Notes: generated by a model from the letters alone, not told the origin. Counted from the first letter of the stretch, positions 6,378-61,815 are shown. The stretch is 62,290 bases of DNA from a virus (IMGVR_UViG_3300017963_000048:1-62290), one strand, 5' to 3'. Translations and numbers: made by a program.

Positions 6378-6393
6378 TGTTGCTGTAGCAACA
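6378..6393. repeat. Dispersed 16-bp palindrome TGTTGCT-NN-AGCAACA (copy 1 of at least 13)
   Basis: Copies at 6378, 12387, 18244, 25001, 29950, 33870, 39228, 44955, 47180, 49975, 54078, 57838, 61800; the 12 core arm bases GTTGCT/AGCAAC are invariant. Confidence 0.95.
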
Positions 6394-6453
6394 GCACCAG
6401 CTGCTGCAAGATTTTTATGCGCACCAGGTGCGCTTAATTCAAAAAGTTTTGCG

Positions 6454-7242
6454 TCAACTTTTGAAGGTGTTATAACTCATTTCGCGGGTTTGAAAGACAA
6501 ATTGATTAGCATGAAAAGCACCATGCACTGAGCACCAAGCCATCCTCATTTCGCTTTCTTGGCCACCAGAATATTCACGGCCAATGCTGATGCCGGTGAA
6601 TGCACTGGTATAGAGTGAAGCGGGCACGCCAACCAGATTGCTGTCAGTGACTTCATTGACGGTGATATATAAACCAGCACCAGGGTCAAAGCGCCCACAG
6701 ACATAATAGAAATCACCTTCAGCAATGACCACGCTGCTGGTCACACTGACAATGTTGATGCCATCAGTGGTGACTTGAAAAATTGGCTGGTTTGCAGGAG
6801 TCATCGCAATGCGATAAGATCGGCTAGAAGCTTCACCCCATTTGCCAAAAGTGTGTGAAATTGCCCCACCAGTATTGACCAAACCGAAAAATCCAGTCAA
6901 TGTCAAACCACGTCTGGGAATTTCAATGTAGCTTTCAGTGCCAGTCACATTATATAGATTAGTTGCGCCCTGGTGATCACCGTCAAGATATTCAACATAA
7001 GGCCAATAATCGGGTTGATAAAAACCAACATCGTCATTTAATGACAATGGTGCATCGACTCCATTTTCATTAAATAGCTGACCAGCTTCATCAAAGTAAC
7101 CCGCCCACCAGCTGGCCAAGTGGGCCAGCTGTGTTTTCAGCAGTGGTGGCATGTGCGCCAAAGCCATTGAAGGATTATCTTTACTAAAGAAGTGGGTAGA
7201 CAATAATGCAGTCAGCTGGTCATTTTCTTTCTGTGCTGTCAT
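6454..7242 (-). CDS. Tail-tip protein with LamG/ConA-like domain
   Basis: GKWG..SRSYRI, FYYVCGRFDPG, ISIGR pattern; position after baseplate genes. Confidence 0.6.
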   Translation of the reverse strand: MTAQKENDQLTALLSTHFFSKDNPSMALAHMPPLLKTQLAHLASWWAGYFDEAGQLFNENGVDAPLSLNDDVGFYQPDYWPYVEYLDGDHQGATNLYNVTGTESYIEIPRRGLTLTGFFGLVNTGGAISHTFGKWGEASSRSYRIAMTPANQPIFQVTTDGINIVSVTSSVVIAEGDFYYVCGRFDPGAGLYITVNEVTDSNLVGVPASLYTSAFTGISIGREYSGGQESEMRMAWCSVHGAFHANQFVFQTREMSYNTFKS

Positions 7243-8444
7243 TTGATGCCTTTCAAGCCCATGCGAGCAATCATCTGTGATAATCTTTGGATCTTAACAC
7301 CATTGACACTGTAATCGTAAGGCGCAGTATAGCTGGCCGTTTCAATAAACATCACGCGCCGATCATCAGTCAAAACTGTTGCATCTAACAGTGGTGTGGC
7401 CGGAAAAGCGTTGCGTGCTATCAGCCATTTTCCTGGCAATACGTTCCACGGCTCTACTACATGATCAGTGCCAAAGTCAAGCAGCCTAGATTCCTCACCA
7501 ATTCTTAAAGCATATTCGGCCTGTGTCGGAATTGGTTTATAACGTGCCACCCGATTGGCAAAAATGCCAAATGTCCAGCGCTCGAAGCTGGCACCACCCT
7601 GTGTTAACAGTTCACTGATGATCGTTTGACCAGTGCGCGACTTGTCATCAAGCCTGCGCACCAGAACTGGATTAGTGTCAAAGTCAGTGCTGTCCACAAT
7701 GCCATTTGGATCAGCTGCCAAAACTAACTCTAGCTTGCTGGTGGGTGTGCCACTGATGGTGGTGACTCCTGGTGTGTTGTCATTATAGTAAAATTTTTCT
7801 AAGTAATGACGCAGCCCCAAACACTCTAACTGAATGCTAACTTGACCAGCTGAGAACTGCACACTTTTTTGGTCGTCATTTGGCCAAGCATTTTCCAATA
7901 GATAAGTATCTCTGGCTTGCTCAGCTTCATTGTAAACTGGTGTGGCTGTGGTATCCACCAAAGCCTCGCCTGCATTCAACACCAGCATGTGAGTGCCATA
8001 TTTCGCAATCGAGTCAGTGTCTTGCACAATGATTGTAAAGCGCTGCGCACCTTTCAGAAAAGGAGTGTGCTCAACATAGATAGGCGTATAAGTGGCAATA
8101 ATGTCATTAGAAATGTCTAGCAGTGGCCCAATGGTGCTGGTCAATTCACTCTGCACAAACGTGATCTGGTTGACAATGCCAAGCCAAATCTCATTACCTA
8201 ATTCATCCGTTACCTGAATGATGTAACCAAGCCCTTTCTCATACCAGTCAGAAGCTGTGAAAACATCAGTGCTGAAACCCATGCTGGCAGCATCAAAACC
8301 ACCATCAGCCAAAATGCTGTGGGTGTATGAGGCCAGCTTTTCAGCTAAGCTGTTATCAATCTCTTTGGCAAAAGGGTCAAAGGTGGGATACCAGCTTGGC
8401 TGGTAGACTTTGACAATGATGCCTGTGTTCTTCAAAATGGCCAT
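7239..8444 (-). CDS. Baseplate hub/Tal-like tail protein
   Basis: Second gene after tape measure; SIAKYG motif, IWLGIV..I. Confidence 0.65.
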   Translation of the reverse strand: MAILKNTGIIVKVYQPSWYPTFDPFAKEIDNSLAEKLASYTHSILADGGFDAASMGFSTDVFTASDWYEKGLGYIIQVTDELGNEIWLGIVNQITFVQSELTSTIGPLLDISNDIIATYTPIYVEHTPFLKGAQRFTIIVQDTDSIAKYGTHMLVLNAGEALVDTTATPVYNEAEQARDTYLLENAWPNDDQKSVQFSAGQVSIQLECLGLRHYLEKFYYNDNTPGVTTISGTPTSKLELVLAADPNGIVDSTDFDTNPVLVRRLDDKSRTGQTIISELLTQGGASFERWTFGIFANRVARYKPIPTQAEYALRIGEESRLLDFGTDHVVEPWNVLPGKWLIARNAFPATPLLDATVLTDDRRVMFIETASYTAPYDYSVNGVKIQRLSQMIARMGLKGIK

Positions 8445-11174
8445 CTAAACACCTGGGGGAATACTAGATAAATATAACTCGTTTCCATCCATTACAGTTT
8501 CAAACAGCAAACGATGATCACTAAAATCTTCGCCACTTGCGCCGGTGCTCATATAAGGCCAATTGCCTATGAAAAGTACCGTCACCATGTGCCGGTCAGT
8601 AGCTGGCAGCCAGAAACGTCTTTGACAGAAATAATCCATCTGTTCAACCACTACATCGCTGTTGTTGATTATGCGTGCCAGCAAATTCCTGGTCAAAGTT
8701 TTCACGCTGCCTATTTCGATGGTGTCAGTGAAGTCAGCACCAGTGCCTTTGTGCCTTTGTGTCAAATAAGCATCCAGATAGACTTCATCAGCTGGCATGA
8801 AAATGATGTCCACCAGTTTGATGGTGCCCGGCGTGTTGCACGTGCAACTGACTGTGACCCATGTCGGTGGCTGTGCTTCAGTACCCACCAGCAAGCCAGC
8901 ATCCAGCACTGGCAGCTGCATGGTGCCCAAATTATAGGTGAGCACACCATAAGGCGTGCCTGACTGCAAAATGTTGTCAAAGCCTATTACTTTGTTTTGA
9001 CTGGCATAAGAGCCATAGATGTCAAAGCCACCCGCAGCCACATCAGTTTTGACACGCACAAACACATTAAATCTGCCATTGTATTGACTGGCCACACTAC
9101 TAGATATATTGATGGCAGCTAAGCTGGCCTGCTGCGTGGCGATCATCGTTTTTTGCACCACTCTGCCGGTGGGTGCATCAGCATCAGCGCCAAAAGCACC
9201 ACCTAGCAAACCCACCGACAAATCAGCACCACCCACAAAAACATCACTGAAGTTTGCCGTAGCTTGAAAATCTGGCGCCTCACCAATGTTTTTGACACCT
9301 AAGATCATTCGGTAAGTTTTTGACGAAAAATAAGCAGTCAATTTTTCATACTTTGATTCAAAGCGCAGCTGCGTTTCTACACCAATATCACCACCGAGAT
9401 CATCAATCAGAAACCAGTTTTTGTTTTGGGCTTGCACATGGTCAATGGCCATCTTAGGCACTGACGGCATGGCCGCGACTGTGAGTGTCCAGCGCACCCA
9501 ATAAGCATTCACACCATTGATGGTGGTTTTGGTCAGTGTGTTGGCTTGATTCAGATAGAACAGATTCCTGCCCAACTCTGTGAATCCATTAGTATTGTCA
9601 GTCATTGTGGGTGCGATGTTTGTCCAGGCACCAGTATAAGCCTCATAATTCATGCCCCAACCTGGTGGGGCTGCTGTGGCCAAGTTAAACAAAAGCACGT
9701 CAATGGGCACATCTGTGTGGCCGATGTATAGTATGTCACCAGCACCACTGGGAAAGGTGAAAAGATCAATGCCGGTATTTTCCACTTGGTTGGTGCTGAA
9801 AGCAGCTGCTGAAGCATCGTATCTGAAAATGTGCGTCAAGTTTGGCAAATTGCCATTGCGCAAAGCAATTGCAGCACAGTCACGCACATCGCTGGGCAAT
9901 CCAATGGCTTCATTACAAATGGCCAAAATTTCGACATTGGTCATCGTCAAATCCCACCCCACCAGCAAGTCAGTTAAATTGGTGCCTTCACCAACTTCAT
10001 GCTGCCAAGCAGCCACCACAGCACCAGCAAATGGCCCATCTGGTGTGAAGCAGAGCGCCTCATAATCAATTGGTTCGGGGTCACTATAGAACCAATTGGT
10101 CTGCCACAAACGCTGCCATCCCATCTTTAAGCCTGCCGTTTCATCATAGCTGGCATAATTACCCACCACGAAATTGGCAGTGCTGCCCACTGGTGTGTAG
10201 CCTGAATTTTGATACCCATACAAGGGCACCAGATAACCATTCACAAACAGCCTACAAGCAGTCCAGCCAGAATTGGTGCTCAGTGCCATGTGGAACCAGT
10301 CACCCTTGATAGATGACGGCAGCTCCCAAAAGCTGATCTTTTCACCAGTGTTGCCGATAGCTGGACCGTCCTGATAAGCCCACAATGACACTAAAATTTG
10401 ACCACGAGAATCTTCCTCGATGATATATTTCCAACCTTCATAAACAGTGCCACTGTCCCACATGCCACAGATAGGTGCAGTCACGCTGCCAACAGCAGGT
10501 GTGGCCCAATCAATCTTATACCAACCATCCCAAGCAAACTGATCTTCATACTTGTCAAGCGTGGCATGATAGGCACGCTCTGCACGTGCATCAGTTTGAT
10601 CAAACACAAGTGCGTCACGCCTTTCATCACGGTCAACAGCTTCATGATAAAACTCTAAGCACTCATCTAATCCAGGGGGCTGCTTGCGCCATCCTGAGCG
10701 CTCGATCTGCACCAGGTATTCTTCAGATACCAAACCAAGTGGTGAATCTTGTTTGATGGTGTCACCATCAGCAGGTGTTTCAAAGTTATGAATGAGCGCA
10801 TATCTGGTGACACTTTCACCCAACTTTTTTCGAGCCATAAACACTGGCCTGATCTTACTTGGTGCCAGCCAAAATGAACGTGCACGCAGCAGCACGCGGC
10901 GCATTTCTCTGATCTGTGCAGCCAGGGAATCATCGTCTTTGGCACTGGCATTGATCTCAAATTCTTCGAGCACTGTTGACCAGCGAAAATCTACTAAGTG
11001 CCGATCATCAGCCAGCGGGGAATCTTGCCACACTCCACCATCTTTCATGGTTTGAATGGCACGCGGCCACGCCTCGAGAGAAAAATTTCCTAAGATGTCA
11101 AACGTGTTCTCACGCGTGCCATCTGAAATATAAAATACTTGCAAGCCATCTATGATAGGCACATAATCAGTCAT
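8445..11174 (-). CDS. Distal tail protein with inserted LamG-like carbohydrate-binding domains
   Basis: Follows tape measure; WFHMAL..RLFVNG..FVVG LamG pattern. Confidence 0.65.
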   Translation of the reverse strand: MTDYVPIIDGLQVFYISDGTRENTFDILGNFSLEAWPRAIQTMKDGGVWQDSPLADDRHLVDFRWSTVLEEFEINASAKDDDSLAAQIREMRRVLLRARSFWLAPSKIRPVFMARKKLGESVTRYALIHNFETPADGDTIKQDSPLGLVSEEYLVQIERSGWRKQPPGLDECLEFYHEAVDRDERRDALVFDQTDARAERAYHATLDKYEDQFAWDGWYKIDWATPAVGSVTAPICGMWDSGTVYEGWKYIIEEDSRGQILVSLWAYQDGPAIGNTGEKISFWELPSSIKGDWFHMALSTNSGWTACRLFVNGYLVPLYGYQNSGYTPVGSTANFVVGNYASYDETAGLKMGWQRLWQTNWFYSDPEPIDYEALCFTPDGPFAGAVVAAWQHEVGEGTNLTDLLVGWDLTMTNVEILAICNEAIGLPSDVRDCAAIALRNGNLPNLTHIFRYDASAAAFSTNQVENTGIDLFTFPSGAGDILYIGHTDVPIDVLLFNLATAAPPGWGMNYEAYTGAWTNIAPTMTDNTNGFTELGRNLFYLNQANTLTKTTINGVNAYWVRWTLTVAAMPSVPKMAIDHVQAQNKNWFLIDDLGGDIGVETQLRFESKYEKLTAYFSSKTYRMILGVKNIGEAPDFQATANFSDVFVGGADLSVGLLGGAFGADADAPTGRVVQKTMIATQQASLAAINISSSVASQYNGRFNVFVRVKTDVAAGGFDIYGSYASQNKVIGFDNILQSGTPYGVLTYNLGTMQLPVLDAGLLVGTEAQPPTWVTVSCTCNTPGTIKLVDIIFMPADEVYLDAYLTQRHKGTGADFTDTIEIGSVKTLTRNLLARIINNSDVVVEQMDYFCQRRFWLPATDRHMVTVLFIGNWPYMSTGASGEDFSDHRLLFETVMDGNELYLSSIPPGV

Positions 11175-11177: not shown

Positions 11178-13877
11178 TTATCTCATCTCACTTCTAATGA
11201 CACGCCTGACCACACTTTCAACTTGCGCAGGGGTCATGCCAGCAAAGCTGTTTTGCATGCTAATGTTGGCAGTGCGGTTGCTGACATTGGTGGTGGTCAC
11301 TGGTGCCAAGCCATTTTGGGGCTGCAAACGATTCAAGCTTTGTGCTAATGCTGGCATGTTGCTCTTAGCAAGAATATTCATTTGGGCATTGATCTCTTTG
11401 ATACCTTCAGCCAAAGGCACTGGTGACTCTTTAGTATAGTCTGTTAGTTTGGGCATGTTTCTAATGCGGGTGGCAATAGTGCTCAACCAGCTTGCAAAAG
11501 TGCTCAATAAACCATTGATGGTTTTGATTCCTTCTTGTAGTCCAGCAAGAACACCATCACGCAGCCATTCAATTGCTGGTGACAAGTCTAGATCAATTTT
11601 CTCCCAAACATCATTCAGCCAGCCCCAAACTTCCTCAGCTGCTAAGCTCCAATTATTGAAATAAGCGATCAAGTTTTCGCTGACATAATCACCCAAAGCT
11701 GTGGCCACTTCAATCAACCCTTCCACCGCTGGTGTGACATAAGTATTTAACCAGTCAGTGAAGCCTTCCCACATGGGCACAATTTTTTCGTCATACCACT
11801 GTTTCGCAGTGTCAACTAAAGTTGTCCACGCTTCACTGATTTTTGCAAAGCTTTCACCCGTAGTTGTATCCCACTTGGTCACAATGCTATCCCAAAGCGT
11901 TGAAAGCTTTTCCACGATAGCAGCTTTCATGGCTGCCACCTTTTCAGTCATCATGGTGGTTATGCCATCCATGCCTGTGCTGAGCGCATCACCCAAGCCA
12001 CCTAACGGCCCACCACCAGCACCAGCACCACCACCACCACCAGCAGCACCAGCCGCGGCCGTGGGCGCATCACCCATCAATTCACGATACAGTTGCAACA
12101 TTTGGTTGACCGCATTTTCTTGACTGGTCAATGAATCTTCCGCAGCTTGCTGCTGCTCTTTGGCCAGTTGCAAAGCATCTTCAGCTGCTGCTGTTTCGGC
12201 AATCGCGGCTTGCTCAGCTGCACCTGATGCCGTTACCATTGCAAGTTTATCATTCAGCTCTTGCTTGGTGCCACCTTCCCGCAACAGTTTGTTATATTCG
12301 GAAACTTGCTTCAGAGTTTCATCTGTGGCTGCATTTTCACTTTGACGTGCAGCAGCTAAGCGCTGCTCTGCTGAAGTCACGGCATCTGTTGCTGTAGCAA
12401 CGGCAAGCTGACCTTCAGCCAGCTTGACCAGTTCAGGCCCAAATTCACCAGCTGATTTTCCTAAGCTTTCAAAAGCACTGGTCAAGTCACCACTGTCAAT
12501 GCCAGCAGCAATTTGTTTGCTAATGTTTGCAAATATGCCACCAGCAGCACCTTCACCAATGCCACCAGTTTGCTCGAGGAACCCCAAAGCTTGCTTAAGT
12601 GGTGATTGTAAATCTTTCAGCATGCCAAACTCAGCATCAGTCATGCCTTTCACATATTCATTCATCGCACCCATGCCCCACTTGTCAATATCGGGGGCCA
12701 CTTTAGGTGGTGATCCTGGTGCCATCCAGCCAGTCAGCATGCTGGTCAAAGCATTCATAGCCCACACCAGCACGCTGCTGATCGCGTCCATGATGCCACC
12801 CGCAAACTGCTCGATTAAGTTGAACCCCCATTCAAAAGCACTGTCAAGCGTGCCACTGAAAGCACCATCCACAGTGGTCACTAATGACTGCATGACATCA
12901 CCCACCAAGCCAATGGCAGCAGCCACTCCATCAGCCATGAAGCTGGCTGCGGTGCCAATCTTCACAAAAATGTTTTGGACCTCACCACCTTGCAAAGCAC
13001 TGTCAGCAAACTTTTGCAGCAAGTCAGCCCAAGCACCTTGCACTGTGGCCAGTGCAGGCTGAAGTGCAGTGCCTAGAGTATTTTTCAAATTGGCACTTTG
13101 GGCATCTACCCTGGCCATCTGCTCGGCAGCAGTCAGCTGGTCACTGCCGTAATCTTTCATCAGCTGCTGACTGGCTTCAACCGTAGCATTCAGCACTGCA
13201 ATCTGCTCTTGTTCGCTGCTCAGTTGGTCTACAGTGATACCTAATTCAGTGGCCAGCTTATCTTTAGCAGCAGCCATGTCAAGCACTAATCCAGTATTGT
13301 CAATCAGCAGAGGCGAGCTGCGTTTGATGCCTGTCACCAGTGACTGGAACATGAAGTCAAACTCTTGGCCAGTGTTACGTGCTGCAACTCTGGCACCACC
13401 AATCAAAGCAGGAAGCGCATTGCCAAACTCTTGGCCGAAGGTTTGGGTGGCACCAGTCAGAGCCACATTTGCCTTTTGCATCAATTCCCAATCATTCAGC
13501 ATGCCACCAGACGCAGCGCGCATCTTGTCAATACTGACACCATATTTGCCCGCGTTAGCTTCAAACCCCAAACCAATGCCGTAGAGTGGAGCAGTTTCTT
13601 TGGCAATGTTGTTAAGCGTTGAAATGACTTTGATGCCCCCGGCTACAATCGCAGCAAAACCAGCCACCACAGCCACTGTAGCCGCGGCAGCCACTGCAAA
13701 GCCACTGCTGAGTGATCCACTCGCGATTTTTCCAATGCCACTAAAAGAGCTTTGCGCTTTTTTTCCAATGCCCATCGTTTCAGCCATTTTTGCAGCCCAC
13801 TTAGCTTGGCCAGGTAGAAATCTTTGGTTCTGCCAAATCGCGGCCACACCAACTTCGTTAGGTTTTTGGCTTGTCAT
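11178..13877 (-). CDS. Tape measure protein
   Basis: ~900 aa, Ala/Gly-rich helical, SPLLIDNTG motif, Trp-periodic C-terminal repeats. Confidence 0.9.
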   Translation of the reverse strand: MTSQKPNEVGVAAIWQNQRFLPGQAKWAAKMAETMGIGKKAQSSFSGIGKIASGSLSSGFAVAAAATVAVVAGFAAIVAGGIKVISTLNNIAKETAPLYGIGLGFEANAGKYGVSIDKMRAASGGMLNDWELMQKANVALTGATQTFGQEFGNALPALIGGARVAARNTGQEFDFMFQSLVTGIKRSSPLLIDNTGLVLDMAAAKDKLATELGITVDQLSSEQEQIAVLNATVEASQQLMKDYGSDQLTAAEQMARVDAQSANLKNTLGTALQPALATVQGAWADLLQKFADSALQGGEVQNIFVKIGTAASFMADGVAAAIGLVGDVMQSLVTTVDGAFSGTLDSAFEWGFNLIEQFAGGIMDAISSVLVWAMNALTSMLTGWMAPGSPPKVAPDIDKWGMGAMNEYVKGMTDAEFGMLKDLQSPLKQALGFLEQTGGIGEGAAGGIFANISKQIAAGIDSGDLTSAFESLGKSAGEFGPELVKLAEGQLAVATATDAVTSAEQRLAAARQSENAATDETLKQVSEYNKLLREGGTKQELNDKLAMVTASGAAEQAAIAETAAAEDALQLAKEQQQAAEDSLTSQENAVNQMLQLYRELMGDAPTAAAGAAGGGGGAGAGGGPLGGLGDALSTGMDGITTMMTEKVAAMKAAIVEKLSTLWDSIVTKWDTTTGESFAKISEAWTTLVDTAKQWYDEKIVPMWEGFTDWLNTYVTPAVEGLIEVATALGDYVSENLIAYFNNWSLAAEEVWGWLNDVWEKIDLDLSPAIEWLRDGVLAGLQEGIKTINGLLSTFASWLSTIATRIRNMPKLTDYTKESPVPLAEGIKEINAQMNILAKSNMPALAQSLNRLQPQNGLAPVTTTNVSNRTANISMQNSFAGMTPAQVESVVRRVIRSEMR

Positions 13878-14166: not shown

Positions 14167-14986
14167 CGAGAAACATTTCGCCTGAAGCAGCGATCACCTC
14201 CCGGCTGACTGAGCCCTCACCTGAGATATACATCACTTCAGTTTGCAGGCGCACCAGTTCTGACGGTAACACGCACACCACAGTGGCAAGCCAGTAAAAC
14301 CACAGATCAAAGCGCTGCGTGCGTGTCAAGCTGCCCACACGCTTTGTGACCTGTTTTAAATTCAAGTCAGCCTCATCAGGATGATCTTCAAACCAAGTTT
14401 CAAAGCCAGGGATATCCTCAATGCCAATGTACAAACGTTCTAACAGCCATTCATGATCTGCCGGTAAGTCATCAGTGACACCACGCAGCAGCACTTTGGT
14501 GGTTTCTCGATTGATCTCACCATTCATTTCATCAGTGTCAGTTAAATGCTGCTCCCACTGCTCCACCACGCGCTGCACTTCAGCACGAATGGTCTTACTC
14601 GTGAAAGATTTGTCAGCTAATTGCTTTTTAAAAGTCACCACCATTTTGGAAGTCACCATTGATTCCTGCACACCACCACCAGCCAACGGCATTTTGATCA
14701 CGGGCGGGTCAATGGCTTTGCCTTGCCTGACGTGCTTGCTTCTAATGGCATTTGACACGCGCCCAATGTCTAGCATGGTGATGGCACGCAATGTCAAAGT
14801 GATACCGCTGACAGTTTTGAAGGGGTGCGCTTTGGGATCGTAATCTAATTTAAATAATGGAGCAACTTCTTCAGCAGCTTCAGCTTGGCCATTGCCATCT
14901 GGTGCTTCAACAGCTTCATCTGGTGCTTCAGCAACAGCTGTTTTTTTGTTGCGTGATCTTTTTCTTTTAGGTGTTTCAGTAGTCAT
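14033..14986 (-). CDS. Putative tail assembly chaperone
   Basis: Synteny between tail tube and tape measure; GGAG RBS. Confidence 0.6.
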   Translation of the reverse strand: MTTETPKRKRSRNKKTAVAEAPDEAVEAPDGNGQAEAAEEVAPLFKLDYDPKAHPFKTVSGITLTLRAITMLDIGRVSNAIRSKHVRQGKAIDPPVIKMPLAGGGVQESMVTSKMVVTFKKQLADKSFTSKTIRAEVQRVVEQWEQHLTDTDEMNGEINRETTKVLLRGVTDDLPADHEWLLERLYIGIEDIPGFETWFEDHPDEADLNLKQVTKRVGSLTRTQRFDLWFYWLATVVCVLPSELVRLQTEVMYISGEGSVSREVIAASGEMFLGAIYQEMEQRQTNAAAQASSDSAPETSVSGSSQQNEKAGQVAAQ

Positions 14987-17556: not shown

Positions 17557-18579
17557 TTATATCGAAGCGCTGCGATATAAAACCATGTCACTGATGGCAT
17601 TCCACACAAACCAAGCACCATCAGACAAACCAAAGGGACACGCTTCACGCTCCGGTGTGTAGTTGGTGGGCGTGTTGCGATCACGTTCCCATAAAGCTTT
17701 GATGCCTCGACAACCACAAATAGGATTAGGCATCAAAGTGTGCGCCAAACGTATAATCAGATCAGCTGTGGCACTGTCAAGCACTTGCAAGCCAGCCTGA
17801 TAATTGACACTCAATTTGTCACCAGGAGGGCAGCTGCATATGGGAATGACATCAATGGTGCCTAAATAGCTGTTACGGATATAAACACAGGCGCGGCTGC
17901 TAGATTCAATACAGCTGCAATCATGGCCAAGCAATGTGGCTTGCGTGGTGGTGTCACAGCTTTCTAGTCTGACATCTAATTCGTCAGCAAAGTTGTTGAG
18001 ATCAGTATAATCTAATCCACTGATGCCATTATTCCAAAAAGCTGGCTTGACCAAACGGCAGCGGGGAATGCTGAAAACATAAGTATCGTTTACTCCACCT
18101 GCGTTAAACACCACGCTGCTGGCTTGTACCTCATAATCACTATTAGGATGAAAAATGTGCATGTCATTTTCAGCACCAGCTGCATAGGTGCCAGCTGGAA
18201 CACTGATGGTGATGGTGGCCGGATCAGCTGCATGATTGACTGGTGTTGCTGTAGCAACACCAGCCCAAGCTTGCTGACCAATGCACGTGACCATGCCCCA
18301 TTTCAAATTTAAGCGTGGCCGGTAGATAGATTCTTCAGCCACAAACCATTTGGGGCTGAGTGGATAATTTAATTGTCGTTCAATCTTTAGTTGGGCATCA
18401 TCCAGATAAGCGCTCAAAGCATTGCGCTGCGCTTGCGTCCAAATGTCAGGACAGGCAGCATCTTCACCAGCTTTGGCCACACCAAAAAACGCGCATTCAG
18501 GAATACCATTGATTAGCGCATAGAGCGAGATCGGAATACCAGCGTGAGGCGTGATGTCAAGTGCACTTGGTACAATCAT
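17557..18579 (-). CDS. Head-tail adaptor-like protein, Cys-rich
   Basis: A...IE..L.YPL.P, V.YQAG pattern; position upstream of neck gene. Confidence 0.6.
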   Translation of the reverse strand: MIVPSALDITPHAGIPISLYALINGIPECAFFGVAKAGEDAACPDIWTQAQRNALSAYLDDAQLKIERQLNYPLSPKWFVAEESIYRPRLNLKWGMVTCIGQQAWAGVATATPVNHAADPATITISVPAGTYAAGAENDMHIFHPNSDYEVQASSVVFNAGGVNDTYVFSIPRCRLVKPAFWNNGISGLDYTDLNNFADELDVRLESCDTTTQATLLGHDCSCIESSSRACVYIRNSYLGTIDVIPICSCPPGDKLSVNYQAGLQVLDSATADLIIRLAHTLMPNPICGCRGIKALWERDRNTPTNYTPEREACPFGLSDGAWFVWNAISDMVLYRSASI

Positions 18580-24830: not shown

Positions 24831-25432
24831 GTCAATTGCTCCTCAAGCCAACTGATTAATGTGCTCCGCTGCTGGCCTGCTTGCTCAGCAACTAACAGCG
24901 CGGCATAATCTTCTTTGGAAAAATGGTCTAGCAGTTTGATCTTGGTCACGCTTAGCTCTAAGGTGGCTTCAACTGCCAAATCAACGTCCTCAGCGGGGGG
25001 TGTTGCTACAGCAACAGCATTGGCTGTGCTGACGGCTTCAGCTGCACCAGTTTCAGTTTCGGGGCTGGGCGCTTCAATTTCGGGGGTTTCCTGCGCTTCA
25101 ACTGCTTCAGATAATTCAAACACCAGCAAGCCATGTTTGCGCAGCTGCAACAGTCCTGGTTGGTTTGAACGTGCAGTCTCTAAATCTTCATTCTTGACTT
25201 GCACCTGAGCGCGTGACAAACCTGCACGATATCTGGTGCCACTCACCGGCCCGAAATAAGTTTGCGTGCCCCAACTGCGCCCCACATATTTCAAAACTGT
25301 GTGACCATCTTCAACTTCGTCCACAGTAGGCACTGCTTGCTGGCCATCGTAGATTGTATTCATAACACTGCTCCTTGAATCATTTGATCTAACAGTGGGC
25401 GCACTGCGCACACCACCACCACAACACGGCAT
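24827..25432 (-). CDS. Hypothetical protein after capsid gene
   Basis: GAGGAG RBS; MPCCGGG start; acidic linker; E..GQQRSTLI..L C-terminal motif. Confidence 0.7.
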   Translation of the reverse strand: MPCCGGGVRSAPTVRSNDSRSSVMNTIYDGQQAVPTVDEVEDGHTVLKYVGRSWGTQTYFGPVSGTRYRAGLSRAQVQVKNEDLETARSNQPGLLQLRKHGLLVFELSEAVEAQETPEIEAPSPETETGAAEAVSTANAVAVATPPAEDVDLAVEATLELSVTKIKLLDHFSKEDYAALLVAEQAGQQRSTLISWLEEQLT

Positions 25433-29612: not shown

Positions 29613-31281
29613 CGTCAGCCTCCCACGCAGGCGGGTCAAGCAGCTGTGCAAATTCTGGTGTCTGCCGGTTGGCTGTGGCCACCGCTCGATTGACATCTGC
29701 TTCCGTGATGTCAAAATCTTCACCTTCATAAAGCGCCTCAGTTTCAGCTTGACGTTGCACCACATAAGACGGCACCGCGTGGCTGCGTCTTTGTAGTAAG
29801 TTTTCCCCACTTTCCCAGAGCACCTGCACCCTGCGCTGTGGATAATGATAACGCACCACTTGTTCGTGCGGGAAAAGCTCAGCAGCACGATGAATGCGTG
29901 GGCTGCTGAGCAATTCATCACGCTTGCGCCTAAGTGCCATTTGTGACTTTGTTGCTACAGCAACAGCTGCATGTGCACGCTCCACAGCCCCACCTTCATC
30001 ATCGTCAATGATGGAAGGTTCCTCTTCCTCGGTCCAAGCCGGGTCAATAATGTTTTTAGATGCCAGCAAAATGCGAAACTCCTCACGTGAGATACCACCC
30101 TGGCCATCATTGCCAATGGCCGCTTCGCGCACAGTTCTGAAAGCTGTGGCCCAAGCTTGCGTCACTGCCGCGGCACTTATTTCACTATCATCGTCTCGGT
30201 CATCAAATTCAAACACCACGCTGCTGGGCGCAATGTCGGGGCGCATGATCGCATCTGTGAATGCCAGCGTGACATTTTTGGCACCCTTGCCACTAGCTTT
30301 GACGTGCTGAATGTCTGACTCGCCTGATCTACCCAGACCACCATATTTGACCGGGTAAAATTCGCTCGCATCATAGCCGAAAGCCAAAGCATATCCGTAC
30401 ATTAACAAACTGGTGAATACTTCACGATCAAAGTCACGTGGCAACTGACTGAGGGCCAATAGCTTGCCATCAATGTCTCGGTCACCACTGGCCAGCACAG
30501 CCACCGAGTCATAATATTGCCAGTTCTCACCCTCTAAATCTTGTTTACGCCCTAGCATAGCAGTTTTAAATTGCATTTCGGTGATGCCCTTCAGTAGCAT
30601 GATGCCGCGGGGTGCTTGGGCACCTAATTCTTCTTTGTCATGCAAGTGCACTGCGATCATGATCTGTGCCAAGTCAATGCAGCGTGACACTGCACAATAG
30701 CCTAAACCATTGTATTTCTCATCAGTGCTGACCTGACTGGCTGTTCTCAGATAATCGGTCGCCTTCCATTTTTGCAACTTGCCTTTTTGCGGTTTATATT
30801 TAATAGGATATTCGACATCACCAGTCAAAGCACAACGCGAAGAGTCAAGATGAAATAAACCACGCAGCGCGCCCATTTCACCAGCGCGCCCCAATTCAGC
30901 AGCCCCACCGAAATCTGTATTGTAGTAATTCTGCGCAAACGCCCCAAACCCCATGCGCCAACCAATCAAATCTGGAAACAGCACCCAATTGTGCAGCGCA
31001 TTGCTGAAGCGTATCGCTTGATTCCTGCCACCAGTCACCGACCACCCTCGATTGGCATCTATACTGGTGGCACCCAATAACACACCCCCCAAATGTGGTT
31101 CTAGCTTGGGGAAGTCTAGCAGCCAGCTGTCACGCTTGCGCGAGTCAGCTGCATAATCTGGCACGTCCATGCCTTTGATGTTTTTCTTGTACCATTGCAA
31201 AGTGCTGGTGAAAAATTCGTCAGCTTGCACGTCAACAGAAAAGCGTGGCTGCTTGGTATCTTGATAGTTTTGGTCACTCAT
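29599..31281 (-). CDS. Portal protein
   Basis: ~560 aa directly downstream of terminase; PRGIMLL, ALAFGYD motifs. Confidence 0.75.
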   Translation of the reverse strand: MSDQNYQDTKQPRFSVDVQADEFFTSTLQWYKKNIKGMDVPDYAADSRKRDSWLLDFPKLEPHLGGVLLGATSIDANRGWSVTGGRNQAIRFSNALHNWVLFPDLIGWRMGFGAFAQNYYNTDFGGAAELGRAGEMGALRGLFHLDSSRCALTGDVEYPIKYKPQKGKLQKWKATDYLRTASQVSTDEKYNGLGYCAVSRCIDLAQIMIAVHLHDKEELGAQAPRGIMLLKGITEMQFKTAMLGRKQDLEGENWQYYDSVAVLASGDRDIDGKLLALSQLPRDFDREVFTSLLMYGYALAFGYDASEFYPVKYGGLGRSGESDIQHVKASGKGAKNVTLAFTDAIMRPDIAPSSVVFEFDDRDDDSEISAAAVTQAWATAFRTVREAAIGNDGQGGISREEFRILLASKNIIDPAWTEEEEPSIIDDDEGGAVERAHAAVAVATKSQMALRRKRDELLSSPRIHRAAELFPHEQVVRYHYPQRRVQVLWESGENLLQRRSHAVPSYVVQRQAETEALYEGEDFDITEADVNRAVATANRQTPEFAQLLDPPAWEADDDQT

Positions 31282-33825: not shown

Positions 33826-33958
33826 GTTTACCTCTGAGGGTTATCTAAAGCGCCCACGCTGCGTGCTGGTGTTGCTACAGCAACAGCTGAGCAACGCAGG
33901 GCAGCATGGGCACTTTGGGCAAGTCAATTCATGGGCTTTTCGCAGCCCATAGGATTTT

Positions 33959-39149: not shown

Positions 39150-39374
39150 TTTTTGTGCCTCCACACTGTTAGGTATTCTTGATCTTACTATAAAACCAGC
39201 ACAACATGCAAGCGCTGACCAATAAAATGTTGCTATAGCAACACCAGTGAAGCACAAAAATGCGGTTTTCCCGCATTTACAGCAGCACACTCTAATGCTG
39301 CATAGAGTGGCCACCACTGCGCTGCACTGGCTGCTTAAAATGTTGAAGCCAAGCACTTGGCTTGGCTTCAATGA

Positions 39375-44934: not shown

Positions 44935-44993
44935 TTGGTGGTGTTGCTCAGCTGCGTTGCTGTAGCAACACCACCAAAATTGACATCATAATT

Positions 44994-47166: not shown

Positions 47167-47265
47167 AAAAGCAAATGCCCGTTGCTGTAGCAACGGGCAT
47201 GCACGCCTATTCGATAACGATCAAGTACCCAATCGGGTGGAGGATCGGCGCGTTTGAATTGTACC

Positions 47266-47427: not shown

Positions 47428-47432
47428 GATCT

Positions 47433-48540: not shown

Positions 48541-48541
48541 G

Positions 48542-49934: not shown

Positions 49935-50001
49935 TGATTGACCTCCAGTGATCAAAATGTGTGTGTGTCAAGCGTGTTGCTGTAGCAACAGCAACACTGC
50001 A

Positions 50002-54063: not shown

Positions 54064-54115
54064 ATTCAAGCCAGTGGTGTTGCTACAGCAACACCACTGG
54101 CCAAGCTGGTGAATT

Positions 54116-56514: not shown

Positions 56515-56518
56515 AGTT

Positions 56519-57226: not shown

Positions 57227-57305
57227 ATGCACAAAAAATATATATATATTCCTTCATAATGTAGCTTTACATCCCTATTAACAGAATGATACAATCACAA
57301 AAATT

Positions 57306-57791: not shown

Positions 57792-58072
57792 ATATCCCAT
57801 ATCCACCACCAGCCACATTGCCACCATACCCTGGCCCTGTTGCTACAGCAACACCACTGGCCACAGCCACAGCCACCAGCACACCAGTCACGCTGCCCAC
57901 CAGCACGTTTTTGCTGCCAGTTGGCCCACCATCACAAGTGGGCTTGCTAGAGTTCACAGCCAGCAGTGGTGGCTTTGACGTGGCTTTGATCTTTGCAGCT
58001 GGTGTGGTGCTTGGCTTGCTGCTTGGTGCACTGTTTTGGTATCTGCTGAAGCGCAAGTTAAAGAGGTCATGA
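57788..58072 (+). CDS. Pro/Thr-rich surface peptide with C-terminal TM and basic tail
   Basis: PVATATPLATATATSTP..PSQVGLLEFTAS..TM..KRKLKRS. Confidence 0.65.
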   Translation: MNIPYPPPATLPPYPGPVATATPLATATATSTPVTLPTSTFLLPVGPPSQVGLLEFTASSGGFDVALIFAAGVVLGLLLGALFWYLLKRKLKRS

Positions 58073-58073
58073 A

Positions 58074-58913
58074 ATGAGAAACTCGACACACAAACCACGC
58101 AAAAAAAGTTTGGTGACAGCTAAAAGCATAGCACAAGCGCTGACCAAGCTGCCAGCTTCAGCACCAGCTTCAGCTGCCAAGCAATACCAGTGCAGCATTT
58201 GCCAAGATGTGGGGTATCTGCGCTATGACTTGCCCACTGATCATGCTGACTTTGGCAAATTGCAGCCCTGCCAATGTAAAGCGAAAGCCATTGCTGACTT
58301 CAAAAACAGGAATCTGTTTTCAATTTGTCAGCTGGATGATCTTTATGGCTTGCGCTTTGAAAACTTCAATCCAAATGGCTTGAATGGCTTGACCACTTCA
58401 CAGCGCAAATCTGTCAATGAAGCTTTTCGCAAATGCAATGAATATGCCAAAGAACCTGATGCACCAATGGGGTGGCTGCTGCTGGTGGGCACCTTTGGCT
58501 GTGGCAAAACACATTTGGCTGCTGCTATTGCCAATTTTATGGCTGAGCGCAAACACGTGCAAACGCTGTTTGTGACTGTGCCTGCATTGCTGGATCAGCT
58601 GCGCAACACATATGACACCAAAGAGCAAACCTTCACTGACTTAATGGAACAGATTCAAGCTGTGCAGTTGCTGGTGCTCGATGACTTTGGTGCTGAGCAG
58701 CCCACCGATTGGGCCAAAGAAAAGTTATTTCAAATTTTGAATCGCAGATATATCAGTGCAGCACCCACAGTGATCACCAGCAACTTAGCACAGCAAAAAA
58801 TGGAAAATCTGTATCCGCGTATCTATTCAAGAGTGCGTGACTCTGCACTCAGCACCATTGTCATCATTGAAGCTGATGACCAGCGCACCAAGAAACCAAA
58901 AAGGAAATTATGA
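58074..58913 (+). CDS. dnaC: DnaC/IstB-like helicase-loader ATPase
   Basis: CSIC..GY...D....H.DFGKL.PCQC; GTFGCGKTHLA; LVLDDFGAE; ITSN; SR. Confidence 0.9.
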   Translation: MRNSTHKPRKKSLVTAKSIAQALTKLPASAPASAAKQYQCSICQDVGYLRYDLPTDHADFGKLQPCQCKAKAIADFKNRNLFSICQLDDLYGLRFENFNPNGLNGLTTSQRKSVNEAFRKCNEYAKEPDAPMGWLLLVGTFGCGKTHLAAAIANFMAERKHVQTLFVTVPALLDQLRNTYDTKEQTFTDLMEQIQAVQLLVLDDFGAEQPTDWAKEKLFQILNRRYISAAPTVITSNLAQQKMENLYPRIYSRVRDSALSTIVIIEADDQRTKKPKRKL

Positions 58914-59365
58914 AAAATAAAAAAGTTAAAGTCATTTTCCCGGCTTTGTCACATCAGCACCATAATTTCAAAAAGCAGCGCACAGTGGCCAAACAGAATG
59001 CAGTCACCAGCAAACCACCACCAGTGGCCACCACGCTGTTGCAATGCGCAGTGCTGCATGCGGTCAACTTCTACACTGGCAGCACTGCCAAATGGCAGGC
59101 ATTGGCTGCATGTGGTGCCACTAACTTGCAGATCAGGGAAACTTTTGAAATTAACATGCCAAGCATGGGTGGCGGTAACATCAAATTTGACGGCCAGCAC
59201 GCGTGGGTGCGTGCCACACGCAAACCACCACGTGTGTGGGTGAGCACCACCAGTGTGCTGCCAGACATTGACAAAACCCCGACAATCGCGGGGCTTGACC
59301 TGATCAAAATGGTTCGTGAATTATATGAAATTGGGGCACCACCAAGCTTGGATATCCCATTTTGA
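58910..59365 (+). CDS. Hypothetical protein ending in SSB-like DIPF tail
   Basis: ATGA overlap; C-terminus SLDIPF. Confidence 0.65.
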   Translation: MKNKKVKVIFPALSHQHHNFKKQRTVAKQNAVTSKPPPVATTLLQCAVLHAVNFYTGSTAKWQALAACGATNLQIRETFEINMPSMGGGNIKFDGQHAWVRATRKPPRVWVSTTSVLPDIDKTPTIAGLDLIKMVRELYEIGAPPSLDIPF

Positions 59366-59415
59366 CTATCCGCACCATAAAATTATGATGACAAGTTTAT
59401 CGAAGGAAGTGCAAG

Positions 59416-59700
59416 ATGAGTTTTGTTAATTGGGTCATTGACAGCTTGGCGAGTGAAGATGTGATTGATCTGTATTTCGTGCTTAGTGACTTAAAAGATA
59501 TTTTCTTGACACCATTGCAATGGGCGCAGCAATGGTGGGGTGACGCGGCCACCAGTCAAGTCAATTGGGAGCACCTTGACCAATATGAATCCATCGAAGC
59601 TGCCTATAATCCTTACCAAGCAGCCCAAGATTTTTATGACCGTACGGGCATTAATCCTTATACTGGTGACGAAACCAGCATAGCCAAAACCGTTTTTTAG
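59416..59700 (+). CDS. Hypothetical protein
   Basis: AAGGAAG RBS. Confidence 0.65.
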   Translation: MSFVNWVIDSLASEDVIDLYFVLSDLKDIFLTPLQWAQQWWGDAATSQVNWEHLDQYESIEAAYNPYQAAQDFYDRTGINPYTGDETSIAKTVF

Positions 59701-59710
59701 GAGAATCATC

Positions 59711-59872
59711 ATGCGAAACAAAACTAACAGATTCAAGCAAGCTTTCATTATCTTGTGCGTGCTGCTTAGCATGCTTCTGGCCAGCTGTGAGTGGGGCAAG
59801 TGCAAAAACTGCAACGCAGCTGGCACGCCCATGCCCACACTGGCACCAGCTGAGCAGCCACCAGGATGGTGA
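59711..59872 (+). CDS. Small lipoprotein (53 aa, not in ORF track)
   Basis: AGGAG RBS; MRNKTNRFKQAFIILCVLLSMLLASC lipobox, TPMPTLAP. Confidence 0.7.
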   Translation: MRNKTNRFKQAFIILCVLLSMLLASCEWGKCKNCNAAGTPMPTLAPAEQPPGW

Positions 59873-59875
59873 TCA

Positions 59876-60199
59876 ATGGCACGCGCACGCTCGACACAAC
59901 GCAGACCAGCCATGCCCCAACTGTGGAACATTCAGCGTGCAGTTACTTTTGCTCGTTGGTGGGGCTTTTTGCTTGGTGTGGTGCTGTCACAATTGGTGAC
60001 ACGCTATACTGAAAGCACCATTGATTGGGAGTATATCCCGCTGACCTGGATTGCTTTGTTTGTGGTCACAGTCAGCAATGCAGTGCATTATTTGGTGATT
60101 GCAGAAACTTATACACGTTATAAAATGACCAGAAATTCAATGATGCAACGCATGGCCGACCAGTCAAAGGACAAGAAAGCATGGTGGCGAAAAGGCTGA
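59876..60199 (+). CDS. Two-TM membrane protein
   Basis: Two hydrophobic segments. Confidence 0.65.
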   Translation: MARARSTQRRPAMPQLWNIQRAVTFARWWGFLLGVVLSQLVTRYTESTIDWEYIPLTWIALFVVTVSNAVHYLVIAETYTRYKMTRNSMMQRMADQSKDKKAWWRKG

Positions 60200-60245
60200 C
60201 CAGCTGGCTGCACTTGCGCTGAGCCCACAAAGCTGCTAAGATATT

Positions 60246-60319
60246 AGGTAGATAGCATTCTGCATGATGCTTATCTCCTTACTTCCAAAGCGCTGCTGAC
60301 ATGGCAGCGCTTTGTTTTT
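60246..60319 (+). ncRNA. Candidate ~75-nt small RNA with anti-SD CUCCUU
   Basis: TTGCGC(60214)-17-TAAGAT promoter; AGAUA-GCAU/AUGC-UAUCU hairpin; CUCCUUACUUCC; terminator AAAGCGCUGC/GCAGCGCUUU. Confidence 0.55.
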
Positions 60320-60351
60320 AAAATTCCCCCGATTCATATGGGGGTAAGCAC

Positions 60352-60380
60352 TTGTCAAATTGTAAAGCTGGCTTTATAAT
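60352..60380 (+). promoter_or_regulatory. Sigma70-type early promoter
   Basis: TTGTCA-17-TATAAT identical to 618-646. Confidence 0.85.
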
Positions 60381-60432
60381 GTCATTTGTAAGTTGAAGCA
60401 CACACACACATAGGCACTGGAGGCCAAAAAAA

Positions 60433-60966
60433 ATGACTGAGATTATCATCACCACACAGCAGTTTGAAAGCTTCATTGAAGCACAGCGCAAGCAGCAAGC
60501 TGGCAGCTGCCATGCTGAGCACTTGCAAGGGTCCAAAGTTGTCATCAGATATATAGAACTTTTCAATGGTGTCAAAGTGCAAGTCAATGCCAACTATTTG
60601 CACAAAGCCAGTGACTATTGCCAAGAGCACGCTGGCCAATGGTATTTTTCTCAATACAGCAGTGAAGCCACACACGTGTGCATAAAGTTGCAGTCCAGCA
60701 CCTACAATTGCTTTGGCACTGGTGCACGCAGTAACGACACACATGAAGCTGCACGCCAAGCCATTGTCAATTTGTGCACACATGGCATGACTAGCACTGA
60801 AGTCATTGAAGCCATGCCACCACTGCAAAACATGTTTGGTGAATGGTCACTTGAATTTAAGTATAAAATTGCCAATCTGCACAATGCTGAAACTGAAGCC
60901 AAGCCAGTCAAAAATTTGAATGACTTTGACAGCGCTGCTGATTACATTGCATATTTGAAAAGCTGA
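60433..60966 (+). CDS. Early hypothetical protein
   Basis: CA leader and CTGGAGG RBS. Confidence 0.78.
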   Translation: MTEIIITTQQFESFIEAQRKQQAGSCHAEHLQGSKVVIRYIELFNGVKVQVNANYLHKASDYCQEHAGQWYFSQYSSEATHVCIKLQSSTYNCFGTGARSNDTHEAARQAIVNLCTHGMTSTEVIEAMPPLQNMFGEWSLEFKYKIANLHNAETEAKPVKNLNDFDSAADYIAYLKS

Positions 60967-60994
60967 AGCACTCACAAAAAAAGGAGAAATTATC

Positions 60995-61795
60995 ATGCAA
61001 AATTTTGAAAATCCATACACACTTGATGAAGGTTTTGACGTTGAAGTAGGTGACTTGGTGGCTGAAGTTAACAGCATTAGCTTTGATGTAAAGTCAATCA
61101 GCCGAGTCAAAGCGCTTTGGCGCAATGGCATTGCTGTGCTGGCCAATGGCAAAAAAGTCCGACCATCGAAAACTGGCTTGGCTGGTGAATTTGGTGGCCG
61201 CGGGTGCAATGGCAGTTTCACAAAAGTTGATTGGCAGAAAGAGGACTTGGCACGCGCTAACATGCGCAATTGGCATGAAAAGCGTGAATCCATTGCAGCT
61301 GAAAATGCTGCCAGACGCAAAGCTGCTTTGCAGCGTTATGCTGCACGCGTGGCACATGTGTGGGAACAGTGTGGTAACAGCTTCAATGCAGCCCAAGTGA
61401 TTGTGATTGAAAGCAGTGACACCAAGTTGATTGAGGTGCGCACATTGCCATTTTTGACTTATGCTGAAATTGAAGCATGCAGCACGCTTGACCAAGATGG
61501 TGTCACCAGCACACGCACCACAGTGCGGTTATATGTCAATGTACAAACCATCACACACTTTGACATTGATGACTCTGAGCGCATCATCCAAGTTGATCAC
61601 CATGCTTTAGGCTTCAGTCAATCTATGCTTGAATATGTCACTGAAACTGGTGAAACTTTCAGTGCCCACACTGGCAATAACCTGATCAATGTCAAGCGCA
61701 CTGACACACTTGGCATTGCTCAGCTGTTAGCTGGTGCCAGCTTGACAGTTGACTTTGCTGAAATTGTGTATGCTGCGGTTAGCGCAGCATATTGA
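60995..61795 (+). CDS. Early hypothetical protein
   Basis: AAGGAG RBS. Confidence 0.75.
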   Translation: MQNFENPYTLDEGFDVEVGDLVAEVNSISFDVKSISRVKALWRNGIAVLANGKKVRPSKTGLAGEFGGRGCNGSFTKVDWQKEDLARANMRNWHEKRESIAAENAARRKAALQRYAARVAHVWEQCGNSFNAAQVIVIESSDTKLIEVRTLPFLTYAEIEACSTLDQDGVTSTRTTVRLYVNVQTITHFDIDDSERIIQVDHHALGFSQSMLEYVTETGETFSAHTGNNLINVKRTDTLGIAQLLAGASLTVDFAEIVYAAVSAAY

Positions 61796-61815
61796 AAAAC
61801 GTTGCTACAGCAACA

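Follow-up and report, generated by a model that had tools for sequence, protein, structure and literature searches.

The 62,290-bp virus genome IMGVR_UViG_3300017963_000048 (hereafter the window, by which we mean the whole stretch analysed) is a complete IMG/VR record with a 123-bp direct terminal repeat and a G+C content of approximately 47%, and it carries 13 copies of a parS-like palindrome together with a gene for a long ParB-like protein. We consider it probable that these palindromes are loading sites for the phage's own ParB clamp, which would act without a ParA and cover the genome. This reading builds on what is directly seen in the genomes, namely the sites, their even spacing, the family membership of the ParB, and the way in which site and protein occur and vary together. 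ParB-type nucleotide-gated clamps segregate chromosomes and, on a few plasmids and integrative and conjugative elements (ICEs), regulate genes at a distance; a clamp that loads and slides like these relatives would be a natural means of covering an entire replicon.

A preliminary description of the window had listed 13 positions for the palindrome, all of which hold exact copies of GTTGCTNNAGCAAC (GTTGCT-NN-AGCAAC). Coordinates given here are those of the 14-bp cores, one base after the starts in that description. Chance or composition is excluded as the origin of the motif, since 100 dinucleotide shuffles gave a mean of 0.04 copies and a maximum of one, and Markov backgrounds of orders 0 to 4, the check initially proposed, expect 0.004 to 0.022 copies; the reversed pattern, taken as a control, has no copy in the window. 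The motif is the commonest 14-mer in the whole genome and its mismatch spectrum is sharp, with 13 perfect copies, one copy with one mismatch and six with two. The usual form is, as described, TGTTGCT-NN-AGCAACA, present as the full 16-mer at nine of the 13 sites, with one flank mismatch at three and two at one, and the central dinucleotides are GT or AC in 12 sites and AT in one, in the order previously given. The 3-3-1-3-3 block order of these centres was considered as a signal, but a circular runs test gave no significance (P 0.17). That symmetric GC centres are nearly absent is attributable to GTTGCTGCAGCAAC, which would create CTGCAG, a hexamer avoided in the genome. Three sites have extended arms of 11 to ~15 nt and the other ten reach at most 8 nt. 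The sites, and two doubtful members of the set, are:

6379..6392, site 1, GTTGCTGTAGCAAC: intergenic, with the hairpin that follows the upstream gene on one side and the AAGGAG ribosome-binding site of the GH25 lysin gene on the other
12388..12401, site 2: inside the 901-residue open reading frame (ORF) 11178-13883, minus strand, reading VATAT
18245..18258, site 3: inside ORF 17557-18579, minus strand, reading VATAT; arms of 11 nt
25002..25015, site 4: inside ORF 24827-25447, minus strand, reading VAVAT
29951..29964, site 5: inside ORF 29599-31296, minus strand, reading VAVAT
33871..33884, site 6: intergenic, in the interval that separates ORF 33043-33825 from the YhhQ-like gene 33959-34606
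39229..39242, site 7, unique in its AT centre: intergenic, flanked by a terminator-like hairpin and by a promoter-like TTGCAT-17-TAAGAT that lies upstream of an ATG near 39148
44956..44969, site 8: intergenic, just upstream of the GAGGAG ribosome-binding site of a minus-strand gene ending at 44934
47181..47194, site 9: intergenic, 12-nt arms, terminator-like on the minus strand, adjoining four 32-nt direct repeats
49976..49989, site 10: divergent intergenic region that separates the minus-strand block, ending at 49955, from the plus-strand early block, starting at 50120
54079..54092, site 11: 233 bp past the ParB stop codon; arms of ~14-15 nt
57839..57852, site 12: either in the 283-bp gap 57792-58073 or in ORF 57662-58072, plus strand, where it would read VATAT; this ORF appears in one ORF call and is absent from the greedy gene set
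61801..61814, site 13: intergenic, followed by terminator hairpin 61818-61843 and consensus promoter 61876-61904
14922..14935, one-mismatch copy GGTGCTTCAGCAAC: doubtful member
8835..8848, variant perfect palindrome GTTGCACGTGCAAC with a CG centre: doubtful member

Five copies had been placed in coding sequence with the readings VATAT or VAVAT. Both readings stand for sites 2 to 5, and site 12, the fifth, may be coding; PHROGs gave no named match for the site-bearing ORFs that had been called tape measure, adaptor and portal. The intergenic sites, read by eye, sit at the edges of transcription units. GTTGCACGTGCAAC shares its CG centre and the A/T at arm position 6 with the canonical chromosomal parS, GTTTCACGTGAAAC, and the G at position 4 with the phage motif.

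The sites are spread evenly around the genome. Computed around the circle after removal of the terminal repeat, the gaps are 6009, 5857, 6757, 4949, 3920, 5358, 5727, 2225, 2795, 4103, 3760, 3962 and 6745 bp, in agreement with those first reported; they thus range from 2,225 to 6,757 bp with a mean of 4.8 kb, and no position in the genome lies more than ~3.4 kb from a site. The coefficient of variation (CV) of the gaps is 0.29, whereas random placement in 200,000 simulations averages 0.90 (P 5e-6); P is 2.5e-5 for the largest gap and 4.8e-4 for the smallest. Eight or nine of the 13 sites are intergenic, compared with 9.2% of the genome, and evenness as a by-product of intergenic placement was therefore considered and rejected, because P(CV) remains <=2e-5 under a stricter null that preserves the intergenic/coding split and uses the 39 real intergenic segments. 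As the evenness survives this null, it is a property of the sites and not of gene layout.

The putative reader of these sites is a 677-residue protein encoded at 51813-53846 on the plus strand, which had been called a ParB from the outset. Its match to the Pfam helix-turn-helix (HTH) family HTH_ParB (PF17762; 1.1e-14, 54.8 bits against a cut-off of 22.6) and its predicted Noc/ParB/KorB fold bear this out and indicate that it is a member of the ParB/Noc/KorB superfamily. Box II (GxxR) is formed by G71 and R74 and Box III (ENLQR) by E136, N137 and R140, both conserved in the family alignment, and a Cys4-type zinc ribbon (C366, C369, C381, C386) is invariant across the aligned homologues. The family, of ~580-680 residues, has a ParB-like N-domain, a ParB HTH, the zinc ribbon and a helical C-terminal region; homologues are 28-30% identical over ~55% of the length, can be aligned over the full length, and share GxxR, ENxxR, the HTH, the four cysteines and the C-terminal region. 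A profile search of 1.84 billion representatives returned at least 150 cluster representatives (50% identity) that match full-length at E<=1e-97. Full-length members were absent from 50,697 GenBank phage and 72,556 plasmid (PLSDB) records at >=80% query cover, and a scan of IMG/VR with the window ParB peptide gave no confirmed match. In two distant homologues, P0013 (875 residues) and P0014 (750 residues), an H-NS family domain (PF00816) accompanies the ParB N-domain and HTH.

Against solved structures the family profile matched ParB, Spo0J and Noc at 1e-33 to 9e-39 and KorB (8qa8) at 2e-12, and the window protein alone, searched with phmmer against the PDB, matched Noc best (1.4e-17). In its AlphaFold (AF2) model, which has a predicted local distance difference test (pLDDT) score of 82.6 and coil at residues 1-7, the first ~240 residues match Noc, ParB and KorB structures by Foldseek at target template modelling (TM) scores of 0.67-0.73, and the DNA-binding domains 6s6h and 6y93 are matched at target TM 0.70-0.78. 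Foldseek found no PDB match for the remaining ~430 residues, an ESM Atlas search with the C-terminal part reached a best score of 0.81, below the useful range, and PHROGs and Pfam gave no name beyond residue 250, only a sub-threshold DUF4947. A homodimer model of residues 355-677 scored 0.65 against 0.09 for the best control, a mark reached in calibration by 20 of 30 solved homo-pairs and one of 23 single chains; contact agreement between runs is at least 93% and the partner pLDDT at least 67, and as a model it supports dimerisation of the C-terminal region. The observation that no ParA is visible also holds: PF01656 (the CbiA family) was found in none of 33 records, namely the window and 32 viral loci with relatives of the long ParB that were obtained from IMG/VR with the family alignment, while the control was positive in 14 of 14 genomes. 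Nor is an LG(R/K)GL-type ParA-binding peptide, as that motif is defined in PMC12704722, visible at the N-termini in the family alignment.

Further evidence for a link between site and protein comes from these 32 relatives, of which 26 hold GTTTCNNNNGAAAC (77 sites in 989,661 bp of summed sequence; reversed control 0). Compared with these, 19 viral records lacking a long ParB hold four single copies of GTTTCNNNNGAAAC, and none has two. A blind palindrome scan recovered dispersed (C)GTTTCC-NN-GGAAAC(G) in several ParB loci and TGTTTGCGCGCAAACA-type sites in one; at least four dispersed copies of a palindrome were found de novo in 3 of 32 ParB loci, and three or more in none of the control loci (0/57 and 0/24). 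The generalised pattern GTTnnn-RY-nnnAAC, allowing at most one arm mismatch, occurs at 0.99 sites per 10 kb in the ParB records compared with 0.045 in 34 loci related to the window by large terminase (TerL), an approximately 22-fold difference, and 15 of the 32 ParB records have at least three such sites. The TerL relatives (~50% identity) lack the long ParB, one of 14 giving a weak match (E 2e-4 over 91 residues), and serve as controls; they alone are quoted for density, as a second set is biased, having been chosen for holding the window motif, and a generic one-mismatch palindrome finder, noisy in GC-rich records, was left out of the counts. One TerL relative lacking a long ParB holds a single canonical parS, GTTTCACGTGAAAC (G010:C1:6752-6765). 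An exact 16-mer scan of IMG/VR gave at least 111 stretches, and those listed have either a single copy or a pair within ~200 bp. Among records of similar length, five have one copy each, and no close relative was found by this route.

What these phages have in common is the ParB gene. It is the only window protein shared with all eight whole relatives (BLASTP E<=1e-4), one of which, G036, additionally shares an FtsK-like protein and its neighbour. The relatives have at least three unrelated backbones; an HK97-type set is represented among the 32 by terminase in 25, portal in 24, capsid in 16, small terminase in 15 and prohead protease in 10, and both the window and G021, a complete phage of 59,977 bp with 14 sites all around its genome, stand outside it. 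The preliminary suggestion that the palindromes belong to the phage ParB is thus supported, at the level of sequence comparison, by a site that goes with the ParB gene across otherwise unrelated phages. The site also varies with the protein. Its arms end in GCT in the window and in TC(C/T) in most relatives, whereas G050 and G051 have TGC, the relatives' main site being GTTTCC-RY-GGAAAC and that of one lineage GTTTGC-GC-GCAAAC, and the ParBs of the window and G050, the longest reliable branches of the ParB tree, are those that carry the variant sites GCT and TGC. More specifically, one orthologous gene has a site at the same relative position (0.71-0.76) in G044 and G049, where it is TCC, and in G050, where it is TGC.

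Many of the sites lie in genes. Across all 33 genomes 91 of 111 sites are within ORFs, and in seven genomes, including G021 with its separate backbone, a site occupies the last 1-3% of the ParB gene itself, encoding a V-S-T-E-T-like tail visible in the protein alignment. The coding sites of the relatives use all three frames (41, 27 and 16), which indicates a constraint on DNA and not on peptide; together with the many intergenic sites of the window, this rejects a peptide repeat as the origin of the motif. Spacing in the relatives, with typical gaps of 3-9 kb, is also even when pooled over seven records (Fisher P 2.2e-4).

The best genomic relatives of the long ParB are in Chloroflexota bins, and in four such bins the contig that encodes it carries phage-type sites. 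A 36-kb contig (C16) of a 2.6-Mb bin has five, at 5.5, 12.5, 20.9, 28.6 and 33.0 kb, and a contig of another bin (C12) also has five. The canonical GTTTCACGTGAAAC occurs as an adjacent pair on a different contig in three of the four bins, and a separate short ParB of ~290 residues is present in all four. Among 401 Chloroflexota genomes the window motif has at most two copies per genome and is no commoner than its reversed control. The alternative that the palindrome is a host site, raised with the preliminary description, therefore fails where it could be put to the test, since phage-type sites are on the long-ParB contig, canonical parS is elsewhere, and the window motif is this rare in the Chloroflexota genomes sampled.

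Based on these data, we posit that a dimer of the long ParB, joined by its helical C-terminal region, would read each 14-16-bp site through its HTH. By analogy with ParB, Noc and KorB, the N-domains would then close in a nucleotide-dependent way and release a clamp that slides for some kilobases. With sites every 2.2-6.8 kb, the zones from neighbouring sites could overlap so that the whole 62-kb genome is covered, and a host chromosome lacking such sites would stay uncovered. Classical partition is unlikely as the purpose, because ParA is missing from all 33 records and many relatives are integrated. The most likely role, in our analysis, is genome-wide control or organisation, either as KorB-like long-range transcriptional control or as compaction and marking of the replicating genome; the data are compatible with long-range control, with compaction and with the guiding of modification enzymes alike, and we favour control or organisation. 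A bolder proposal, which we regard as possible but doubtful, is that a widespread, as yet uncultured (pro)phage family with its best matches in Chloroflexota bins 'chromatinises' its entire genome with an orphan clamp and loading sites every 4-9 kb, forming a self-specific coat. Such a coat would tell phage from host DNA and might serve to silence the prophage or to guide enzymes such as the DpdA machinery, or compaction factors, and selection would then act on spacing, forcing sites into coding sequence where there is no intergenic gap.

Several points weigh against a genome-covering clamp. Binding, nucleoside triphosphate (NTP) dependence, sliding, full coverage and role are inferred, all of them from co-occurrence. 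The purposes first suggested (condensation, shielding and silencing) are conjectural to the same degree, and the suggested hand-off to an FtsK pump has as its sole basis the FtsK-like gene next to ParB, which one of the eight fully compared relatives shares. The Pfam ParB_N match of the window protein (22.6 bits) is under the curated cut-off of 26.3, and its Box I reads SRYQQH where relatives have NPYQPR, a change by which binding of cytidine triphosphate (CTP) may be altered. Six of the 32 relatives lack GTTTCN4GAAAC and nine have fewer than two parS-like sites, many of these records being fragments. Single relatives are only marginally even in spacing (P 0.009-0.54), and G021 has a pair of sites 108 bp apart. 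The co-variation is based on two variant lineages only, both long branches. The comparison with host chromosomes covers relatives and a sample from one phylum. Finally, one site is also terminator-like, and the eight or nine window sites at transcription-unit boundaries would fit a static operator equally well.

The main alternative is accordingly that the same protein reads the same sites as a static, operator-bound regulator (repressor or activator) that neither slides nor covers the genome, the spacing being a reflection of transcription-unit layout. The excess of intergenic sites over the intergenic share of the genome, the location of several of them after a terminator and ahead of the following promoter or ribosome-binding site, and the one in the divergent early region are all as an operator would have it. 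We nevertheless consider this reading unlikely: four or five window sites are inside long structural ORFs, coding sites predominate over the 33 genomes and use three frames in the relatives, the evenness persists under the intergenic/coding-split null, and the nucleotide motifs GxxR and ENxxR are conserved across the family.

It is less probable still that some other phage or host DNA-binding protein reads the palindrome and that the link to ParB is coincidental. Candidates do exist in the window, including a weak GntR-like protein of 306 residues, the FtsK-like protein and small early proteins of no family, but none of them is common to all site-bearing relatives, as only ParB is; moreover, the ParB gene's own 3' end holds a site in seven genomes, and the site has the architecture of parS, the known target of the ParB HTH.

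A comparably low probability attaches to the clamp as a targeting subunit that, loaded on phage DNA alone, guides or activates a DNA-modifying enzyme, from the DpdA/7-deazaguanine module or an N6 methyltransferase, so that the host genome is left unmodified. The window does encode DpdA (phrog_887, 2.1e-39), Gat-QueC, QueE, YhhQ and N6_Mtase, a phage ParB homologue is reported to activate a thymine dioxygenase on double-stranded DNA (PMC13229309), and fusions of ParB folds with methyltransferases are described as common in prophages (PMC12704722). However, none of the eight fully compared relatives shares a modification gene with the window, these genes are over 8 kb distant and on the opposite strand, and the 5mYOX-associated ParBs are presented in PMC13229309 as having no obvious DNA-binding domain, unlike the window protein.

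A dispersed centromere of a plasmid-like prophage, using a host ParA or an unrecognised motor, appears very unlikely. The model for such an arrangement would be phage N15, whose IR sites are dispersed. N15 SopB binds the four sites IR1-4, several ParB-type sites in the genome of a temperate phage (PMC7205306), and the window is circular or terminally redundant, with no integrase seen among the 50 ORFs scanned. In contrast to the 13 window sites and the missing ParA, the N15 system has four sites and serves plasmid-prophage partition as a type Ia SopA/SopB system with a ParA. The ParA-binding peptide is likewise not visible in the alignment, a centromere does not need even spacing, and nine of the 32 relatives are classed as integrated proviruses, and one relative lies inside a 1.88-Mb contig; for these, partition would be pointless. 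That the palindromes are RNA or DNA hairpins (terminators, processing sites or replication signals) and not protein sites is scarcely credible: three sites have the extended arms and one scored as terminator-like, but a T-run is present at one of six sites in the scanned 44000-62290, the core alone is a 5-6-bp stem with no extension beyond 8 nt at ten sites, and the ParB link across phages would be left unexplained.

The clamp reading gains context from known systems, of which KorB and its operator OB are the closest analogue. On the IncP plasmid RK2 (~60 kb), the HTH of KorB reads the palindromic OB, present in 12 copies, and a sliding CTP clamp exerts long-range control (PMC13768133); the window resembles this in having a ParB-family protein with an HTH and many palindrome copies over a mobile element of ~60 kb, and structure 8qa8 is matched both by the family profile and by Foldseek (target TM 0.70). 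There are also differences. KorB has the ParA partner IncC and the clamp-locking partners KorA and TrbA, compared with no ParA in the 33 records here; OB is a different palindrome, TTTAGC(G/C)GCTAAA, on a plasmid and not a phage; the window-type protein, at ~580-680 residues with a zinc ribbon and a C-terminal region unmatched in the PDB, is unlike KorB; and the window sites are both evenly spaced and in part intragenic, whereas the available part of PMC13768133 describes OB sites as neither.

Noc is the best sequence and fold match of the window protein. It has many dispersed palindromic binding sites (NBS) and acts in nucleoid occlusion through a membrane-binding N-terminal amphipathic helix. 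It is chromosomal, whereas the window protein is phage-borne, and a Noc-type helix was not seen in the latter, no dedicated analysis of amphipathicity having been made. Both lack the ParA-binding motif, Noc being treated in PMC12704722 as an orphan ParB paralogue that lacks it. The likeness to chromosomal parS noted at first is upheld in that the window sites have the same length of 14-16 bp and the GTT...AAC ends; relative to GTTTCACGTGAAAC, the relatives' form differs at one position per arm and in the centre, and the window form at two per arm and in the centre. Chromosomal ParB shares the N-domain motifs and HTH with the window protein, which is roughly twice as long and comes with neither ParA nor ParA-binding peptide, and canonical parS in the bins forms adjacent pairs at one locus, whereas the phage sites are evenly dispersed over the replicon. 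Among mobile elements, BisD of ICEclc is reported to spread over ~50 kb of that element, leaving the host chromosome uncovered, from two sites 2 kb apart; it uses an unrelated 23-bp palindrome, needs BisC and acts as an activator (PMC12409273). VirB of the Shigella plasmid pINV is a ParB-like NTP clamp that regulates transcription (PMC13768133). Both NTP clamps are, like the window protein, ParB-like proteins of mobile elements with an extra domain.

The ParB fold, the parS-like palindrome and the multi-site precedent in KorB are thus known parts. What appears new is the ParA-less phage setting, the length of a protein that combines a zinc ribbon with a structurally unmatched C-terminal region, the even genome-wide spacing of strictly identical sites that are forced into coding sequence, and three orthogonal site variants. 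A literature search, in which supplements were not covered, returned no account of a phage whose ParB goes with parS-like sites that are evenly spaced or spread across the genome; the long-ParB family may already be included in the supplementary trees and tables of PMC12704722. If the protein does load and slide like its relatives, it would offer a handle on the travel range of clamps in vivo, which the spacing may report, and on the roles of orphan ParBs on mobile elements. The orthogonal site and protein variants (GCT, TCC, TGC) could also serve as new DNA-labelling pairs.

From ~4.5 to 50 kb the genes of the window are on the minus strand, and from 50.1 kb across the record end to ~4.5 kb they are on the plus strand. 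The ParB-like protein was annotated in a scan that also identified an AAA ATPase and a DnaC/IstB-like loader among the window proteins, and the annotated features are:

22289-23605: virion protein, annotated at the PHROGs stage
31566-33116: large terminase, annotated at the PHROGs stage
33959-34606, minus strand: YhhQ/Vut_1 transporter, 7-deazaguanine module
36011-37375, minus strand: GATase-QueC fusion, 7-deazaguanine module
37363-38298, minus strand: DpdA-like transglycosylase
42487-43101, minus strand: QueE-like radical S-adenosylmethionine enzyme, 7-deazaguanine module
48930-49955, minus strand: N6-adenine methyltransferase ORF, the Pfam match covering 69 of 311 model positions
50817-51737: weak GntR-like protein (E 0.005)
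51813-53846, plus strand: ParB-like protein
55081-56514: FtsK/SpoIIIE-like ATPase, just downstream of ParB

The 7-deazaguanine DNA-modification module spans 33959-43727 on the minus strand with unnamed ORFs interspersed, and by its gene content the phage probably replaces some guanines in its own DNA. The methyltransferase ORF overlaps the next ORF, 48542-49039, by 110 nt, and the gene may be split or frameshifted. The FtsK-like gene is flanked by ORFs 54116-55084 and 56504-57226, both judged by eye to encode membrane proteins; the FtsK-like protein and the following ORF are those shared with G036 (at 14365-16559). Several 6-bp palindromes are avoided genome-wide (CTGCAG, 1 seen against 42.7 expected; ATGCAT, 1 against 16.9; CCATGG, 1 against 15.4; AGATCT, 0 against 8.8; ACCGGT, 0 against 6.6), which suggests restriction pressure from the host.

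The window sequence was found in full in two metagenomes, from sediment and seawater, which may be its source, with no RNA run among those listed; a megablast with 18 kb of the window matched none of the 50,697 GenBank phage records. Public contigs over 44000-62290 comprise X2, which is identical over long pieces, and X3-X5, which provide short pieces only, and none supplied a diverged relative across any site. One X2 contig joins the left flank of site 49976 to the right flank of site 6379 through 19 nt common to both, and two X2 joints end at or beside sites 54079 and 61801, each joint being a single low-support record; these could be chimeras formed at the palindrome or rare recombinants between sites. 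Public contigs also break at repeated promoter and terminator cassettes. Early-promoter cassettes recur (60352-60432, 61876-61960 and other copies) with TTGACA/TTGTCA-17-TATAAT, a CA-rich run and then GGCACTGGAGGCCAAAAAAAATG, and the 14-mer GGCACTGGAGGCCA and the terminator core AAAGCGCTGCCAGC each have five copies in the window. At 47051-47180, four 32-nt direct repeats, two of them identical, abut site 47181 within a 576-bp intergenic region that has a perfect minus-strand TTGACA-18-TATAAT at 46927-46898, and this repeat region is possibly an origin or a regulatory array.

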